Part shown: one piece after another, positions 1-7,457 of the stretch
Layout of the letters: each line of letters starts with the position of its first letter
Numbering within the stretch: the stretch's first letter is position 1
Assembly: GCA_036170915.1 (NCBI GenBank)
Contig: JAVHQC010000036.1
Coordinates: forward strand, 128,001-192,000
Direction: 5' to 3'
From: Cyanobacteria bacterium auto_48_18
GTDB lineage: Bacteria; Cyanobacteriota; Vampirovibrionia; Obscuribacterales; Obscuribacteraceae
Length of the DNA stretch: 64,000 nucleotides
The notes under the pieces: model-generated
The model's input: only the letters and a program-made list of their open reading frames with translations
Database searches by the model: none
What the model was told of the DNA's origin: nothing
Position numbers and translations under genes: made by a program

Positions 1-2
1 GC

Positions 3-227
3 ATTCGCGACGGTCGCGGCCGTGTCGAGCAAGTTTTTGTACTGGTAAAGAATTGGAAAAATGACACCATTGATGGTGAGCTTGCCAGCCAGGTCGCACT
101 GACCGACTATAAAATCGGCCAACCGCTCAAGGTGGCTGAAAAGGACATGCTTGACTGGACAATTTTGAGCCCGCAGGGCACTGAAGAAGGTAACTTAATC
201 GGTAAGTTTTTAGACTCGCAGCACTAA
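3..227 (+). CDS. 3' fragment of a DUF2314/YegJ-like protein (runs off the window start)
   Basis: Own translation of frame 3: IRDGRGRVEQVFVLVKNWKNDTIDGELASQV...MLDWTILSPQGTEEGNLIGKFLDSQH*. The C-terminal DW..EEGN..GKFLD pattern is typical of this family. Confidence 0.6.
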   Translation: MRDGRGRVEQVFVLVKNWKNDTIDGELASQVALTDYKIGQPLKVAEKDMLDWTILSPQGTEEGNLIGKFLDSQH

Positions 228-347
228 TGCTGAAATTATCCGATGGTATATAGCTAGCCTTAAATAGTGACGCAATTGCTGGTGTTTCAATCACAGACGC
301 AGCAGAGCAGTACGCCCTTTTTTCAGCCTACATATGCGCCCCAAAAA

Positions 348-1958
348 TTATTTATCATGATCCATTTTACTGTGGTCCATCCCGGGCATTTTGCTGTGGT
401 CCACGGTCCCCTGCAGTTGGGCAGGGTCAATTCGACCAGCTTTTATATCTGACATCAGTCGGTCATATTCTTTTGGCGGCAAAACCCGCACTAGATTCAT
501 CATTCCCTGCAGCATAGAACTCCATTGGGGTGCTAGATAATTGTTTTCCGGCCTAGCTACCGCTGCATCCATCGGCATCATCATTAGTTGATCCTGTGGA
601 TACCCCGGACCCTTTCTACTGTTTGCATCTTTTCCTAGAGTCGATTCTGCTTGAGAGTTGTCTCCCGCTGTATGTCCGATGCTATGAGGTGTAGCTTGGT
701 CACGATCAACAGTGTTACCCATGCCTCTTCCCATAGCCGGACCCATCTCTTCGCTAGTTGCAGTACCCTGGGTGACGATTCCCATTCCTTCTTCCAGTCC
801 GCCGCCAGTTTGCATGCCATGCCCCACGTGGGCCATTGGTCCAACCATTGAAACCATGTTATTCATCATGTGGTGAGGCATATGACAATGCAACATCCAA
901 TCACCTGGATATTTAGCATCAAATTCAATATCCCGCGCCTGAGCAACTCCCACAATCACAGTGTTGCCAGGGAACCAAGCTGATTGAGGTATCCGCCCCC
1001 CTTCAGTACCAGTGACGTAGAACTGATGGCCGTGAAGATGGATCGGGTGGTGGTCCATACCAAGATTGACCAATCGAATTTTCACGCGGTCGCCGAGCCT
1101 CACTATCAGCGGAGTCGTTGACGGCGCGGATTTCCCATTCATTGTCAACCAATTGAATTCCATTCCCATTGAATTTGGTACCGGGTTATTTTGCAAGACT
1201 GCGAATTCCTGTAAGACAATTCCGAATTCCTTGTCCACTGGCGGATTGTGTGGCTTTTTTGGATGAATGACAAACATGCCGATTGCCCCCATCATCTCCT
1301 GCATTGCACCATGTGAATGATAAAAATATGTACCGTTTTGGTGCAGAGTAAAGTCGTAAGTGAATGTTTCACCCGGCTTAACTGGATGCTGGCTAATGTA
1401 GGGCATGCCGTCCATAGAAATGGGAATTTCGAACCCATGCCAATGAACAGTAGTATCCTCTGGCAGGTTGTTGTGGAAAATCACACGCACATGATCTCCT
1501 TCATTTACTTCGATGATCGGACCAGGAACACTGCCGTTATATCCCCATAGAGTTAGCACCTTTGCAGGTCCCATCCCAGAAGCAGGTAAAATTTCTCGCT
1601 TTACTATTTCAGCCTGAAGATGAAAAACCTTTACTCCGTTTTGCATTGTCCACGGTAGATGTTTGATGTCGGGCGTCACTACTGATACTGTCTGTGGTGC
1701 CCGTTGCGATAAAGTCTTAACTTGCGATATCGCCTTTGTGGTCCTCATCTGTGGCTCTTTACGACGAATCATTACATCATGATCCATCTTGCTATGGTCC
1801 ATGGCAGGCATTTCTTTCTTTTCTTGCTTGTTCGCGGGCATTTGCATTTTACTGTGATCCATACCGGGCATATTCATCTTGCTGTGATCCTGTGCAAGTG
1901 CATTGGAAACGGAAATGGAGCCTGCAAGAAAACAGACAAAAAACCTAAAAGCTTTCAT
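348..1958 (-). CDS. Two-domain multicopper oxidase (copper oxidase) with Met/His-rich termini
   Basis: Cu motifs HWHG, YHSH, HPIHLHGH and HCHMPHHMMNNM; five DHSKM repeats; Sec-like signal MKAFRFF...ALA. Start placed at the ATG at 1958 (ORF track starts at 1979). Confidence 0.92.
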   Translation of the reverse strand: MKAFRFFVCFLAGSISVSNALAQDHSKMNMPGMDHSKMQMPANKQEKKEMPAMDHSKMDHDVMIRRKEPQMRTTKAISQVKTLSQRAPQTVSVVTPDIKHLPWTMQNGVKVFHLQAEIVKREILPASGMGPAKVLTLWGYNGSVPGPIIEVNEGDHVRVIFHNNLPEDTTVHWHGFEIPISMDGMPYISQHPVKPGETFTYDFTLHQNGTYFYHSHGAMQEMMGAIGMFVIHPKKPHNPPVDKEFGIVLQEFAVLQNNPVPNSMGMEFNWLTMNGKSAPSTTPLIVRLGDRVKIRLVNLGMDHHPIHLHGHQFYVTGTEGGRIPQSAWFPGNTVIVGVAQARDIEFDAKYPGDWMLHCHMPHHMMNNMVSMVGPMAHVGHGMQTGGGLEEGMGIVTQGTATSEEMGPAMGRGMGNTVDRDQATPHSIGHTAGDNSQAESTLGKDANSRKGPGYPQDQLMMMPMDAAVARPENNYLAPQWSSMLQGMMNLVRVLPPKEYDRLMSDIKAGRIDPAQLQGTVDHSKMPGMDHSKMDHDK

Positions 1959-1994
1959 AGATGCTCCGTAAGAAATCATTTTTTAAATCCAGAA

Positions 1995-3458
1995 TTAGTA
2001 ATGATCAACATTGTGATTTTCGTCCAATGAGCTGATATCGCCCTCTTCCGAGCCCATCATTCCTTGTAACCCAGTCAGCTCTCCATGTTCAAATTGCGAG
2101 CGCGGAAGATCAAGTCCACCACCAAGCAAATATCCGTCTAGCTGAGTCGAGCCCTGCTGCAAACGAACTAACGAAGAGATGTATTTTTGACGCACCTGAA
2201 ATGAGGTGCGCCTGGCTATAAGTACTTGAGGATATGCGGCAGCCATCTGTGCAAACTTTGTTTTTTGCAGTTGATAGGCTTCGTCTGCACGTGGCAAAAT
2301 AATATCGCGATATCGAGTGACAGCGTCAAGAGCCGTGTTGTAGTCTCGCACGGCACCTGCCAGCTGAATACGCAATTGCATTTTCAGTCGGTCTATTTCC
2401 CGCTGGGCAATGAGAAGTTCTGATTGCGCAGATGCTATACCACCAGGGTTACGATTAAAAATCGGCAGAGTTATTCCAACTTGAGCATTAGCCAAAACTC
2501 CTGTGCGCGGTGGTTTTCCAGCGCCACCAGTGTCAAGAAATTCAGTGCTATAACCCATAGCGCCACGAACAAACAGATCGGGCATCGGCTCAGCTTTGGC
2601 TCGTATTACTACCGCCCGCGCCCGTTGAATCTGCGCCTGAGCAGCTTTCATTTGAGGGCTTTGATCAATAAGCCGCTTATATAATTGTGCTTCGTCAACT
2701 GGTCCAAGTCTATCTTCAAGATTGCCTGAGAGCCTAACAGGTGACATCTCAGGAGTGCCGAGAAGTACCGCTAAAGTGCGCCATGCGTGTAGGTATGAGT
2801 TTCTTGCAGATACTACTTCGTGTTCAACTAATTCTTTTTCAATACTGGATTCTAAATAATCGGGCTTGTCGGCCTGTCCTACATTGAACAATTCAGAAGT
2901 GGTATTAGTTGCATCCCGTGCTAAGGTAGCTAACTCGTTCTGTAAATCAAGCATTTCTTGTGCGCCTAATACCCGATAAAACAATCCGCGAATGGTATTC
3001 AAAACACGCTGTTTCTGACTTTCAGATTCAATTCCAGCTTGTGTAACTTCAGCGCTATACACGTCTCGCATTTTGCGTAGTTTGCCGCCAAGTGGAATGG
3101 TCTGAACGACAAAGCCTAAGTATGTGGGCTTTTGACTAAGTGCACGAAATGCAAAATTCTCCACTTCGCCACCAACCACAGGATTAGGCAAGAGTCCGGC
3201 TTGTTTTCGTCTCCCTTCAGCTCCCCGAACCATTGATTCAGCTTGTGCCAGAGTAGGATTTGTCTTAATCGCCAGCTGTTCGATTTGTGTTAGTGACATA
3301 GAAGAGGCAGGTGACGACAGCGTTATGGCCTCTCGCAGCTGGAGTTTGGGTTGTAGCTCAGGTTTAGGTTGTACACCTTGCGCCTCCACAACGCCATTAG
3401 TAATCGTAATTGCAACAGCAAAAACTGCGGCGGTTGACTGTTTCGCTAATAATTTCAT
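1995..3458 (-). CDS. TolC-family outer membrane efflux protein (heavy-metal/CzcC-like)
   Basis: Signal peptide and two OEP repeats (A..NP.L...; LPNP; QTIPLGGK; ITLPIFNRN); 15 nt upstream of the copper oxidase ORF. Confidence 0.9.
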   Translation of the reverse strand: MKLLAKQSTAAVFAVAITITNGVVEAQGVQPKPELQPKLQLREAITLSSPASSMSLTQIEQLAIKTNPTLAQAESMVRGAEGRRKQAGLLPNPVVGGEVENFAFRALSQKPTYLGFVVQTIPLGGKLRKMRDVYSAEVTQAGIESESQKQRVLNTIRGLFYRVLGAQEMLDLQNELATLARDATNTTSELFNVGQADKPDYLESSIEKELVEHEVVSARNSYLHAWRTLAVLLGTPEMSPVRLSGNLEDRLGPVDEAQLYKRLIDQSPQMKAAQAQIQRARAVVIRAKAEPMPDLFVRGAMGYSTEFLDTGGAGKPPRTGVLANAQVGITLPIFNRNPGGIASAQSELLIAQREIDRLKMQLRIQLAGAVRDYNTALDAVTRYRDIILPRADEAYQLQKTKFAQMAAAYPQVLIARRTSFQVRQKYISSLVRLQQGSTQLDGYLLGGGLDLPRSQFEHGELTGLQGMMGSEEGDISSLDENHNVDHY

Positions 3459-3529
3459 ATAAACCTAGTTTTGTTTTCGCTGAGGTGAAGTGCATTTGTC
3501 CTGCGGCGTGGTCAAATTTTATTTCAAGA

Positions 3530-3562
3530 TGAAGCGGCCAAGGCAGAGCCTCAGCCGCTTCA
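3530..3562 (-). promoter_or_regulatory. Intercistronic RNA hairpin between the Cys-rich gene and tolC
   Basis: Minus strand TGAAGCGGCTGAGGC-TCT-GCCTTGGCCGCTTCA forms a 15-bp stem with two G-U pairs; no strong U tract follows. Confidence 0.6.
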
Positions 3563-3579
3563 CACATGGTGTGCGCTAA

Positions 3580-3840
3580 TTATCCGCAGCAGGCCGCGTC
3601 TGAATCGCAACATGGTGCTTCAGCTGCGCAGCAATCAGAAGCGCTTGTCTTAACTTGCTGCTTGTCTGCGTTCTTAACTTCCGCATCACAGCAAGAAGCT
3701 GTTCCTGAAGAACAACACGAAGCTTGCACTTCGCAGCACGATGACGCTTTTTCGGGAGTCGAGGCCTGGCTAATTGCAGGCAGCAAGCCAAAAGCAGCTA
3801 GTGCTAAAGCGATTGCGAATAAGCCAATATTAGATTTCAT
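3580..3840 (-). CDS. Small secreted Cys-rich (6x CC) metallothionein-like protein
   Basis: 86 aa from the ATG at 3840 with AGGAGT SD 7 nt upstream; signal peptide MKSNIGLFAIALALAAFGLLPAISQA; mature part has 12 Cys, all as CC pairs. Confidence 0.8.
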   Translation of the reverse strand: MKSNIGLFAIALALAAFGLLPAISQASTPEKASSCCEVQASCCSSGTASCCDAEVKNADKQQVKTSASDCCAAEAPCCDSDAACCG

Positions 3841-3918
3841 AAGTAAAACTCCTTGAGAAAAACACATTAATAGGGCGCTCTGATTAAAAGCGCGTCAAAA
3901 AGTTGCCAGATGTGCTTT

Positions 3919-4113
3919 TTAGATCAGGAGTGAACGCTTAAGTAAATAAAGCTTGTTGCTAGCTAAATGAAGTGGATCGCTCCACAATTCAAAGGTTGTC
4001 GATGTGGCGGCTATCTCTGAGATTAGAGACCCCGGAGCAATAGGTGTAATGTGCAGCAATTGGGAGTATCGTAAGTCGAACTCAGCAGCTGGGAAGGCCG
4101 CAGGTGCATGCCA
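3919..4113 (-). pseudogene. Leader-peptide-like reading frame ending KLYLLKRSLLI*, 5'-truncated or non-ATG start
   Basis: Own translation: 64 open codons (WHAPAAFPAAEFDLRYSQLLHITPIAPGSLISEIAATSTTFELWSDPLHLASNKLYLLKRSLLI*) bounded by an in-frame TAG at 4114-4116. No ATG; a TTG at 4057-4059 lacks an obvious SD. Confidence 0.55.
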
Positions 4114-4190
4114 CTATGGGAAGCGCTAACTATTAGGGGTTCGCCCCTGTTAATTAGCGCGTACATTGAAGTTACAGGGGACTTCACATC

Positions 4191-4529
4191 ATGCAAAACA
4201 ACCAACAAAGCCTGGCAGAGCTTGAGAAACTGCACAAAGAGGCTACTGCCGAAGCTGATCAAGTCTTTAGCATCCATGGTGACACTGTTGAACTAAGAAC
4301 AATGCGGAGTGGATTAGCTATCATCGAAGAAAAGATTACTGAGTTACGCAGAGAGTTGCAGATTGGCGTTGAAGAGATCAAGAATGAAGTTGAAGAACTA
4401 AGAAATGTTGCCCGAGTCACTCAAGAACATATCAATAAAGATGTTGAAGAGTTGAACACTAGAATGCTCGACGAAATCCACGAAATCGAAAAAGAAGTCA
4501 AAGAATTACGTGACGCAAACGAGCAGTAG
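4191..4529 (+). CDS. Hypothetical coiled-coil protein
   Basis: 112 aa, Glu-rich heptad pattern (VEEI/VEEL repeats); GGGGA SD-like sequence upstream. Confidence 0.65.
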   Translation: MQNNQQSLAELEKLHKEATAEADQVFSIHGDTVELRTMRSGLAIIEEKITELRRELQIGVEEIKNEVEELRNVARVTQEHINKDVEELNTRMLDEIHEIEKEVKELRDANEQ

Positions 4530-4567
4530 AGATCCGGCTTACATCCTGATATTGCCTCTCACATAGC

Positions 4568-4599
4568 AAAAAATGGTCTCCAGGGAAACCATTTTTTTT
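4568..4599. terminator. Probable bidirectional intrinsic terminator
   Basis: AAAAAATGGT-CTCCAGGGAA-ACCATTTTTTTT between convergent genes. Confidence 0.6.
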
Positions 4600-4647
4600 A
4601 GCAATTTAATTATCCGACGTTCCAATCACTGCTTTAAAGCTTCGACC

Positions 4648-5262
4648 TTAGAGCTTCTGCATGTAGTACTCTGGGTCTTTCAGACCGCCATCTAAAGATG
4701 GCTTTTTGCCGCCGTCAAAAGGCTTACCGGAATTTTGCCACTCGTTTGAGCCCTTGTCTTTGAGGCCGCCGTCAGCTGGAATCTTTGGCTTGTCTGGCGA
4801 GAATTCGAGGGTACCTTCCACTGTGGCTCCAGGTTTGCCGGCAGCAGCCAGTTCTTTCTTCTTCTGAATCAAGTTAGCCTGTTCAACTGCTGTTTCCTTC
4901 TTCATTTTGATCAGCGTGCCATCATCAAGGTCGTCACTTTTCTTTTGACCAATGATGTCATCTTCGCTCATCATTTTCTTTTCTTTCATACCTGAAGAAT
5001 TGTCATTCTTCTCATTTTTGCCAGTTTTGTATGGGTCGTCAAATGTCAAAAATTTGTCGTCTTTAGTGCCACCATCGTGGTTAAGGCTATTCTTCTCTGA
5101 GGAGGCTTTACCGGGAGCATCCTTGAACGTTTTCTCCATGCCTTTCCAAGATTCCACGGCGATGCTACCTAATTTTTCTGACTTCCCTTGTTGATTCTCG
5201 TTTCCTTTAACAGCGGTGTTATCGTGCGATTCAGTTTCAACTAAATTGTTTACTCTGGCCAT
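4648..5262 (-). CDS. Hypothetical hydrophilic, low-complexity protein
   Basis: 204 aa, K/D/E/G-rich; repeated DGG and DGGLKD motifs; GAGG SD; no signal peptide. Confidence 0.7.
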   Translation of the reverse strand: MARVNNLVETESHDNTAVKGNENQQGKSEKLGSIAVESWKGMEKTFKDAPGKASSEKNSLNHDGGTKDDKFLTFDDPYKTGKNEKNDNSSGMKEKKMMSEDDIIGQKKSDDLDDGTLIKMKKETAVEQANLIQKKKELAAAGKPGATVEGTLEFSPDKPKIPADGGLKDKGSNEWQNSGKPFDGGKKPSLDGGLKDPEYYMQKL

Positions 5263-5408
5263 GATTGCTTACCTCTAGTAATTTGTCGTTTGATCCACCG
5301 ACCTGGGGCTGTTTGAGCCGGTGTGATGCGCTACGAGAACAAATCTAGAAGAAAGTTATTACGGACTTGTGATTGCGATGTGTCTGGTTTGTAACGGGGT
5401 AAACCTAT

Positions 5409-6863
5409 CTATAGAGCCCGCAGAATACGCACCAACCTATCAATGCCGCGGCCAAAAGCGGCCAGAGGAATGCGTTCGTCTTTGCCGTGCATGGTGGCCA
5501 GGTGTTCGGCGTCTACTTCAATAGGCTCAAACCCATAACTATGTATACCGAGCTCACGGAACCAGTGCGAATCAGTGAACCAAGGCACTACCACCGGTAC
5601 CACAGGCGCTGTCGCACCTTCAGCAGCGTTGGCGGCTTTGATAGCGCGAAACATGTCATTGTCGTAAGGTGATGGGTCACCTTTTTCCCACTCAATCACT
5701 TTAACTTCGATACTCGGATCCCCAATGGTTTGCTTGATATCTGCCACAAACTCTTCTGGCGTTACACCCGGCAGTAGCCGGCAGTCTAGCTCTGCGTAAG
5801 ATTGAGCAGGGATGACATTGGTTTTATAGCCGGCTTTGAGAACAGTAATCGACACGGTATTGCGCAGCATAGAATATTTGAGTTTATCTACTGACAGTTT
5901 TGCTTCTGTTTCTTTCGAAGGGTTCACAGCGGTTTTGGCAATATCAGCGTAAAGATCTTTGAGTGGTCCTGACTCCGTTGCAGCGATAGACTGGAAAAAT
6001 TCTTTGACCGGCGGTAACAATTTCATCTTTGGCGGATTATCAGCAATGCGACCGAGGGCTTTAATCATTCTATTGTTGGCCGAATCACTCATAGGCATAG
6101 AGGCATGGCCAGCCAGGCCGTTGGCGGTCAGTGAAAGCCAAAGAACCGACTTCTCGGCATAATCAACGCCCCAATATTTTGCCTTGCCACCACTTTCGGC
6201 TTCAATTGAATAACCTTCATTCAATAAATATTCCGCATCGCTCACCAGTTCTTTTTTGTTCTTTGCAAACCATTCGGCGCCATAAGTGCCACCCACTTCT
6301 TCGTCAGGAGTGGCAATAAAAATAATATCTCTATCCAGTAATTGACCAGAGCGTTTAATGGCAAGCATAGCAGCCAGTTCAATAATGCCCATGCCTTTCA
6401 TATCGAGGGTGCCCCGGCCCCACAATTCACCATCATGAATCTCGGCAGCGAAAGGCGGGTACTTCCAGTCGCTGGCTTGAGCTGGAACAACATCAATGTG
6501 ACTGAGCAAAATAACGGCTTTCTTTTTACCCGTGCCTTTCAAGCGACCGATTACTATGGCGCGATCTTTTGCCGAGTCAAAGACTTGAGCCTCGATGCCA
6601 TTGTCGCTAAGCACCTTTTGTAAATAGAGAGCGCCTAGCTTTTCATTGCCTGGCGGATTGGTGGTATCAATTTTAATGTAGTTGCTAAGTAGCTTGACCG
6701 CCTGATCATATTCGCTGTCATCGATAGCGCCTTTTATGTTTGCGGCATCAACTAATGCACTGGAGCTCGTGAACAACGTTGTTAAACTAAGTGCCGAAGC
6801 CAAAATTACTCTATTCAAAATCAATGACAATTTGTCCTCACATTGGCGGAAGTTGCAAAGCAC
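5409..6863 (-). CDS. M20/M25/M40 family metallopeptidase/aminoacylase (secreted)
   Basis: SHIDVVP, GRGTLDMKG, DEE, GHAS, TDS and HGKDER motifs; N-terminal hydrophobic signal; exact start uncertain. Confidence 0.9.
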   Translation of the reverse strand: MLCNFRQCEDKLSLILNRVILASALSLTTLFTSSSALVDAANIKGAIDDSEYDQAVKLLSNYIKIDTTNPPGNEKLGALYLQKVLSDNGIEAQVFDSAKDRAIVIGRLKGTGKKKAVILLSHIDVVPAQASDWKYPPFAAEIHDGELWGRGTLDMKGMGIIELAAMLAIKRSGQLLDRDIIFIATPDEEVGGTYGAEWFAKNKKELVSDAEYLLNEGYSIEAESGGKAKYWGVDYAEKSVLWLSLTANGLAGHASMPMSDSANNRMIKALGRIADNPPKMKLLPPVKEFFQSIAATESGPLKDLYADIAKTAVNPSKETEAKLSVDKLKYSMLRNTVSITVLKAGYKTNVIPAQSYAELDCRLLPGVTPEEFVADIKQTIGDPSIEVKVIEWEKGDPSPYDNDMFRAIKAANAAEGATAPVVPVVVPWFTDSHWFRELGIHSYGFEPIEVDAEHLATMHGKDERIPLAAFGRGIDRLVRILRAL

Positions 6864-7013
6864 GCCGAATCTATATACATTGCGGTAAACCAGTGTAACG
6901 GCAAGATCAGTTTACTTGAAGGCAATGATATGGAATTAGGGTGGCTTATTTGACAGAATGATTAGCTGAGAAGGTCTTTTGACTTTCCATGTGGTTCTGA
7001 AAGGATTATATAA

Positions 7014-7457
7014 ATGACTAAGTCAATTCGTGTTTTGGCCCTCACTGCCGCTGTCGCTCTTTCTGCCTTTGCCCCTTCATGGGCCGAAGATACAACGACA
7101 ACATCAACCACCACCACTACTTCTACCGATACAACCGTTGCTCCGAAAAAATCGATTATGAAAACTATCAAGGCCGATAGCAAAAAAATCGAAACCGGCA
7201 TGGTAAACGGTACTAAGGGCGCAGTTAAAGGTGTCGAGAAAGTAACTAAAGACATCGGTAACGGTACAAAGAAAGCCGCTACAGCTGTAGTGAAGGGCAC
7301 CGAAAAAGTAGTAAAAGACACAGGCAAAGGTCTTCAGAAAATGGGTGCCGGCGCTAAAACTGGCGTTGAAAAAATGACCGGCAAAGGCAAAGTCAAAACC
7401 ACTGCCACCACCACTAACACAACAACTACTACCACAACCGACGATTCAGCTAAATAG
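7014..7457 (+). CDS. Secreted protein with six 11-mer amphipathic repeats flanked by poly-Thr tracts
   Basis: Signal peptide ending PSWA; 11-residue periodicity (xxxGxxKxxKx); Thr runs at both ends. Confidence 0.8.
   Translation: MTKSIRVLALTAAVALSAFAPSWAEDTTTTSTTTTTSTDTTVAPKKSIMKTIKADSKKIETGMVNGTKGAVKGVEKVTKDIGNGTKKAATAVVKGTEKVVKDTGKGLQKMGAGAKTGVEKMTGKGKVKTTATTTNTTTTTTTDDSAK

Follow-up and report, generated by a model that had tools for sequence, protein, structure and literature searches.

A minus-strand frame in the 64-kb stretch of DNA analysed here (the window) is, judging from sequence comparison, a member of an unannotated family of leader genes encoding a predicted signal peptide, Cys clusters, a linker and a tail LY[LI]xxR[SA]LLI that runs directly into the stop codon. 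We favour, at somewhat better than even confidence, the reading that intact relatives act as cis-acting, metal-sensing translational switches similar to CutF, with a proline-free arrest tail, and that the window holds a truncated end of such a gene. Metal-sensing leaders are themselves an already known class; the candidate novelty is one that carries a proline-free arrest tail.

The frame, which the initial annotation had picked out although it was unlisted, lies at 4113-3919, reads ...WSDPLHLASNKLYLLKRSLLI before its stop codon (TAA at 3921-3919) and ends in LYLLKRSLLI-stop, as that annotation had it. It contains no ATG and is closed upstream by a TAG at 4116-4114. Truncation at the 5' end had been suspected, and comparison with G006, a genome of the same genus, bears this out: blastn matches cover 4076-4929 and 3-227 of the window with 91 nt in between, so the copper cassette lies between conserved flanks, and the flank common to both genomes begins at 4076. 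The extent originally given for the leader therefore stands only from ~4070 to 3919, the part at 4113-4076 being flanking DNA common to G006. Only ~50 leader codons survive inside the cassette edge at ~4070, too few to reach the Cys cluster and the signal peptide, and the remnant accordingly has neither. Whether by insertion in the window or by loss in G006, either of which one comparison genome would fit, the cassette differs between the two; G113 matches the window over 363-3987 (blastn), and a DNA search of 60 relatives recovered the flank alone in G006. When the source genome (86% complete) was compared with the leader profile, the remnant was the sole match (E 7.9e-10). On the evidence of these alignments, the window copy represents a leader gene cut down to its 3' end. 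Because the start, signal peptide and cysteines are gone, its sensor is probably dead, and its stem would stay mostly shut. The label of candidate attenuator given to the locus at the outset fits the family by prediction, while the window copy itself lacks the sensor half and a credible start.

It is distinctly unlikely that the window copy is instead a working 46-aa short leader starting at TTG 4059 and conferring constitutive coupling, or an intact gene that was mis-assembled. The frame is open over 64 codons, and the tail, the stem and three downstream genes are intact, but TTG 4059 lacks a Shine-Dalgarno sequence (SD; duplex +0.3 kcal/mol vs -7.8 at ATG 3840). Mis-assembly is countered by the G006 flank from 4076 and by a 52.9-kb contig, probably from the source run and thus not an independent sample, which covers 1-5400 with zero differences; the region 4060-4130, where the initial annotation had wanted an indel looked for, is likewise identical in it, which argues against an assembly indel. 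A frameshift fusing an 84-aa ORF at 4277-4023 to the tail was considered and rejected: this ORF is the antisense shadow of a plus-strand gene, it has a similar counterpart in G006, and the contig is free of indels.

Table 1. Features of the leader remnant, its predicted RNA structure and the copper cassette (window positions).
Feature	Position	Strand	Basis or remark
Multicopper oxidase	348..1979	-	PF07732/PF07731; best match TIGR01480, below its cut-off
TolC/OEP-family outer membrane protein	1995..3458	-	PF02321, E 7e-34
Small Cys-rich protein of 86 aa, secreted, with CC repeats; putative first target of control	3580..3840	-	
3' arm with SD AGGAG (3853-3849)	3848..3867	-	MFE fold and sequence
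Nested 7-bp hairpin	3875..3893	-	MFE fold; like GCGC hairpins in place in L018, L052
Post-stop helix, 5' arm, partner 3867-3858	3910..3919	-	MFE fold
Leader-gene 3' remnant, ~50 codons	3919..4070	-	No start codon with SD, signal peptide or Cys
Conserved tail codons LYLLKRSLLI-stop, candidate arrest motif	3919..3951	-	Pattern and profile comparison
Anti-SD arm in Ser-Leu-Leu codons	3926..3931	-	MFE and centroid folds; masking test
Junction of cassette and G006 flank, cuts leader	4070..4076		blastn and alignments

Full-length homologues with a predicted signal peptide and Cys clusters upstream of metal genes, for which a motif search had been proposed, do exist. A degenerate tail pattern has 40 matches in the order, spread over 36 of 107 genomes (the reversed control has 5 matches), and these include 11 of the 14 other genomes of the genus; in 11 of 14 congeners the leader stands in front of a Csp-like four-helix gene. 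Thirty loci were fetched, comprising 27 leader frames (window included) and 3 chance matches, and 26 of the 27 leaders are co-directional with, and upstream of, Csp-like, Cys-rich, RND-adaptor or TolC/oxidase-operon genes. The next gene encodes a four-helix Cys protein in 13 cases, an RND adaptor in 7 and a small Cys-rich secreted protein in 5, the remaining two being a DUF5818 gene heading a TolC operon and an unrelated gene. One four-helix neighbour that was tested resembles Csp copper-storage proteins, and three tested adaptor neighbours best match CzcB/NccB or a generic RND adaptor, the other four-helix and adaptor neighbours being assigned by resemblance. Relatives reached via the TolC gene, and hence independently of the motif, carry the leader element too (G113, G085, G087): G113 has WSKPLHLATNKLYLLKRSLLI-stop in front of the same Cys-rich gene, and Cys-rich ORFs of 144-147 aa in G085 and G087 end in RYLLYRALLL and LYISHRALLL. 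A counterpart of the 86-aa Cys-rich gene trails the leader in L018, L052, L074, L075 and L081. By a hydropathy proxy (not SignalP), 31 of 39 full-length matches have an N-terminal hydrophobic stretch.

Several loci depart from this arrangement or elaborate on it. At L021:159-1135 and L022:3105-4031, a secreted DUF5818 protein and a multi-pass membrane protein recur between leader and TolC. One subfamily (L076-L080, L085, L087, P0027-P0039) bears WTxTLxHD together with CPC/His motifs and precedes CzcB-like RND adaptors, which suggests a different metal. The intact leader at L084:1195-1533 is a possible orphan, the next gene lying 222 nt on and being RNA-binding-protein-like, with no metal gene. 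At L038:441-809 (minus strand), a Cys-free acidic secreted leader with the tail LYLFKRTLLI precedes a gene for the inorganic-carbon pump DabA; a homologue search with L038 found itself alone.

A profile of 22 members retrieved 169 clusters at 50% identity (E<=0.001), and among the 150 of these that were listed, 139 fit the tail pattern. Twenty distant matches were looked up, and the phylum range of the family (Acidobacteriota, Zixibacteria, Bacteroidota) rests on the few organism names among them, namely three named clusters from Vicinamibacteraceae (Acidobacteriota), Zixibacteria and Chitinophaga caeni. Scanning metagenomes with the pattern yielded 33 matches, of which 7 resemble leader frames; the other 26, and all 4 viral-contig matches, were set aside as chance. 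The strict tail pattern was found in 0 of the 400 other genomes of the phylum that were searched, a loose pattern gave chance-level, uninformative counts in 300 phylum genomes, and tblastn of L051 against plasmids returned no match. Neither Pfam nor NCBIfam has a relevant match to the 22 core members at E<=0.1. Atlas neighbours, which serve as leads only, are clusters from Acidobacteriota, Thermodesulfobacteriota and Pseudomonadota (0.96-0.97), followed by DUF8199, DUF6769 and DUF6660.

The tail is conserved as a peptide. Across the last ten codons of 28 distinct leader ends, pairwise differences number 1930 synonymous vs 768 non-synonymous, an excess partly imposed by the search pattern, and this upholds the non-RAPP C-terminal motif of the initial annotation. 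At positions -7, -6 and -5, which are free or loose in the pattern, L, K and R occur in 17, 19 and 23 of 23 loci, respectively. A bias at the RNA level is present as well, the codon of Leu-2 ending in G in 23 of 28 loci. In all 39 matches the tail is terminal at the stop. None of the 150 listed matches has a Pro in its last 9 residues, and 145 of them have a penultimate Leu. Upstream of the tail, 63 of the same 150 have a Pro at -11, 39 have PP in the last 15 residues (as do 3 of the 22 core rows, the window copy having none) and 13 have a RAPP-like word in the last 25, so some members may stall on prolines there. In the HLASNK subfamily, which includes the window locus, the last 15 residues are free of Pro.

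The distance between Cys cluster and tail is also constrained. Of 22 aligned rows, which were gathered by tail or neighbour and not by Cys, 18 contain a CC or CxC, and in every one of these the last such cluster is 64-75 residues away from the C-terminus. The corresponding distance is 58-78 residues in 146 of the 150 listed matches, with the profile itself favouring such spacing. Force-profile work, in the part of the preprint available, places periplasmic folding ~70 residues from the PTC (bioRxiv 10.1101/2021.02.06.430026), and taken together with the ~70-residue spacing this would mean that the cysteines emerge as the ribosome reaches the stop.

At the RNA level, the MFE fold of the window locus pairs the third base of the Ser codon and both Leu codons (3931-3926) with AGGAGU at 3853-3848, the SD of ATG 3840, and contains the post-stop helix and nested hairpin of Table 1. 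Anti-SD pairing by the Ser-Leu-Leu codons and the 7-bp hairpin had both been claimed before, and both reappear in this predicted structure. Its stability is moderate (z -1.75; 10 of 200 shuffles equally stable). Masking the leader end lowers the opening cost of the SD from 8.3 to 4.2 kcal/mol, an effect matched by 2 of 150 control pairs. In a footprint model, the window SD becomes accessible wherever the A site lies between codon -6 and the stop (2.7-4.3 vs 8.3 kcal/mol), while an A site at codon -8 leaves it shut (8.4 vs 8.3 kcal/mol). A scan of 3400-4700 with Rfam and for promoters and terminators gave no relevant match.

The same masking, defined as from the leader end to stop+9, was applied to 28 folded loci, the near-duplicates L043, L047, L069, L070 and L072 having been left out along with L084 and L038, which have no clear adjacent start; 150 of the 268 co-directional gene pairs of the source genome served as controls. 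The median drop in SD opening cost is 4.19 kcal/mol (n=28) vs 0.06 in the controls (n=150), and the effect exceeds the control 90th percentile in 21 of 28 loci but not in the other 7. Compared with synonymous shuffles, the native codons give stronger hiding of the SD in 18 of 21 lineage representatives. The cognate duplex is stronger than duplexes with non-cognate ends in only 16 of the 21 (p 0.018, with kin not independent), so part of the pairing reflects the fact that Leu codons are in general complementary to purine-rich SDs. No consensus long helix emerged when six close loci were run through RNAalifold; single folds across lineages share the same layout and differ in helix register, and the conserved trait is therefore masking and not one helix. 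Of the anti-SD stem postulated by the initial annotation, what holds across loci is the predicted masking, enriched in the 28 loci, and not an alignable, covarying helix in RNAalifold. The start region of the Bacteroidota member L095 is unmasked. In G113, a 15-nt tandem duplication of the anti-SD and stop stretch (L018:189-218) places a second copy just past the stop, and in the predicted fold this post-stop copy takes over SD pairing.

For intact relatives, the favoured switch would work as follows. The signal peptide would thread the nascent chain through Sec, and the tail would make the ribosome pause on reaching the stop codon or slightly ahead of it. With the ribosome at the last codons, the Cys cluster ~70 residues back would just have reached the periplasm. 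With metal absent, folding or oxidation of the Cys part would drag the tail loose, the ribosome would depart, and the RNA would refold over the SD of the next gene. If copper or some other soft metal were bound, the ribosome would remain paused and cover the anti-SD codons, whereupon storage, efflux or oxidase genes would be translated. A proline-free tail has precedent in CliM and in the DGMK-stop arrest, which likewise do without proline.

A rival reading is plain translational coupling without arrest: the stem would be melted by every ribosome that completes the leader, which would thus do no more than link translation of the next genes to its own, and its exported Cys-rich product would serve as a metal chelator or chaperone. 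Since the SD is freed with the A site at any codon from -6 to the stop, no long pause is geometrically required, and the genes immediately downstream encode small Cys-rich metal binders in their own right. This account is nevertheless rather unlikely, as it leaves unexplained both ten fixed C-terminal residues with synonymous change and a constant ~70-residue spacing over an otherwise unalignable linker. The AlphaFold model of the intact member L081 also speaks against this account: it is of low confidence (pLDDT 60.6) and mostly unstructured, the only helices being that of the signal and one in the tail at 101-116.

The peptide itself invites two other explanations, each very unlikely. Hydrophobic C-termini are known as degrons or PDZ-type ligands of the Tsp/Prc-, DegS- or ssrA-like types, and the tail might act in this way after release, clearing the peptide or signalling in trans. 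Its obligatorily terminal position would suit such a role, as would the rarity of LL[IL] ends in the source genome (0 of 3037 long ORFs, ~4 expected) and the tmRNA tag of that genome, which likewise ends in RSL plus apolar residues. SD masking and the fixed distance of the Cys cluster would then go unexplained, however, and the conserved Tyr -9 and Arg -5 would sit in the ribosome tunnel, as in the KYxIW motif of CliM; degron activity could be a second role of the tail. Alternatively, arrest may be real but occur on prolines upstream of the tail (GPP, SPP, RGPP), leaving LLI to act mainly as an RNA-level anti-SD. The PP and Pro -11 counts given above and the G-ending Leu-2 codons are consistent with this, whereas PP is missing from the last 15 residues in 111 of the 150 listed matches, the HLASNK subfamily has no Pro there at all, and the window SD stays shut when the A site is at codon -8.

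The closest known system is CutF of Rhodobacter capsulatus (DUF2946), whose stalling at a C-terminal PPP is, according to the available portions of its descriptions, controlled by EF-P, and which has a CxxxC motif and an intergenic stem-loop (PMC9973294; bioRxiv 10.1101/2025.02.05.636593). As far as those portions go, CutF resembles the leader family in being a small Cys leader upstream of a multicopper-oxidase operon, Sec-exported (as family members are predicted to be) and with an RNA structure that hides the SD (a predicted one in the family), and in being predicted to switch on detoxification genes. The family differs in its Pro-free last 9 residues, its CC/CCC/CxC clusters, an anti-SD that often lies inside the leader's own codons instead of an intergenic stem-loop, and the want of a DUF2946 match (Pfam; none among 22 core or 40 distant members at E<=0.1). 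It also falls outside the CutF-like set as outlined in the accessible text, which was filtered by PP in the last 15 residues (Ozturk) or by a terminal RAPP. As 39 of the 150 listed matches would pass the PP filter, part of the family may nonetheless be in the published CutF-like list, unremarked in what could be consulted of it. CruR of Bordetella pertussis, in the passages available, combines RAPP arrest with a 45-residue spacing, a dispensable signal peptide and Rho-dependent termination, and copper turns its genes off (PMC9426467; arrest: PMC12992588). Like the leader family, it is a uORF of a metal operon with a conserved spacing between Cys motif and C-terminal motif; on the same partial basis, the family differs in having CC/CxC at ~70 residues instead of CxxC/CxxxC at 45, and no terminal RAPP.

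Proline-free arrest is described, in the sections available, for CliM of C. difficile, whose penultimate Leu blocks the release factor and whose motif is KYxIW (PMC13183943), for uDF_DGMK-stop, a C-terminal termination arrest (bioRxiv 10.1101/2023.09.02.556018), and for the LudP arrest peptide, whose C-terminal motif is able to arrest termination (10.64898/2026.10.26.761930). The leader family shares the penultimate Leu with CliM as there described. By these same excerpts, CliM, DGMK-stop and LudP monitor YidC/SecDF in Gram-positive bacteria and have no metal cluster, unlike the family, and KYxIW and DGMK differ from its tail when compared without alignment.

Among annotated families, the nearest is HYC_CC_PP (NF047658, Bacteroidota; curated cut-off 28 bits). 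The window remnant and the 22 core rows do not match it, whereas 3 of 40 distant members do, only distant Bacteroidota ones above the cut-off (59.9 bits). The Chitinophaga caeni member, with a match that extends over all 131 positions, ends in LYLLHESFLI. Two relatives on Bacteroidota plasmids, with tails YLLNRTFRI and FVHHCTFLI, resemble the family in preceding RND genes and having CC 72-73 residues from the end; they differ from the core in PP 17-18 residues from the end and in spacers of 190 and 237 nt. The core profile matches P0170 at E 6e-4. A literature search found no published description of the tail or of an HYC_CC_PP function among its top-ranked matches, which left subscription journals mostly uncovered.

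A wider proposal, which we hold more tentatively and at somewhat less than even confidence, is that LY[LI]xxR[SA]LLI-stop marks a multi-phylum, proline-free class of termination arrest with a periplasmic Cys sensor ~70 residues off, or one tunnel-plus-translocon length. It would be the counterpart of RAPP/PPP outside Proteobacteria and would give a function to HYC_CC_PP and many unnamed clusters. The tail may then be modular and joined to different sensors, such as His/Cys ones before CzcB-like adaptors and an acidic Cys-free one before DabA. RAPP/RGPP leaders are absent from many Cyanobacteriota and copper-related ones are missing in Bacteroidota, according to the part of the survey available (PMC12992588), and the characterised copper leaders CutF and CruR, as far as their accessible descriptions go, both stall on prolines. 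Published surveys that selected PP or RAPP/RGPP, as their available text indicates, would therefore miss most of the leader family. If the tail arrests, it would represent a new ribosome-stalling chemistry, bring at least 4 more phyla into the range of trans-membrane metal sensing by nascent chains and annotate many hypothetical genes; with ten residues anchored at the stop, it is directly testable in purified translation systems. The window's own copy, a decapitated relic, matters less in this respect.

The cassette downstream of the remnant has features of its own. The 86-aa Cys-rich protein belongs to no Pfam or NCBIfam family, and each end of the multicopper oxidase bears MDHSKM repeats, which are likely additional tails for binding copper. 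In L017 (G075; 4001-7111), a TolC-oxidase pair 81% identical in DNA to that of the window occurs without leader or Cys-rich gene, and the cassette is therefore modular. Two Csp-like four-helix genes elsewhere in the source genome (C10:191395-191868, minus strand; C4:33655-34101, plus strand) also have no leader. Between the convergent genes at 4191-4529 (+) and 5262-4648 (-), an A/T-flanked hairpin at 4568-4600 is probably a bidirectional terminator, which would shield the cassette from transcription entering from upstream. A 15-bp inverted repeat at 3530-3562, between the Cys-rich gene and TolC, is also present in L018 and is possibly an mRNA-stabilising or terminating hairpin.
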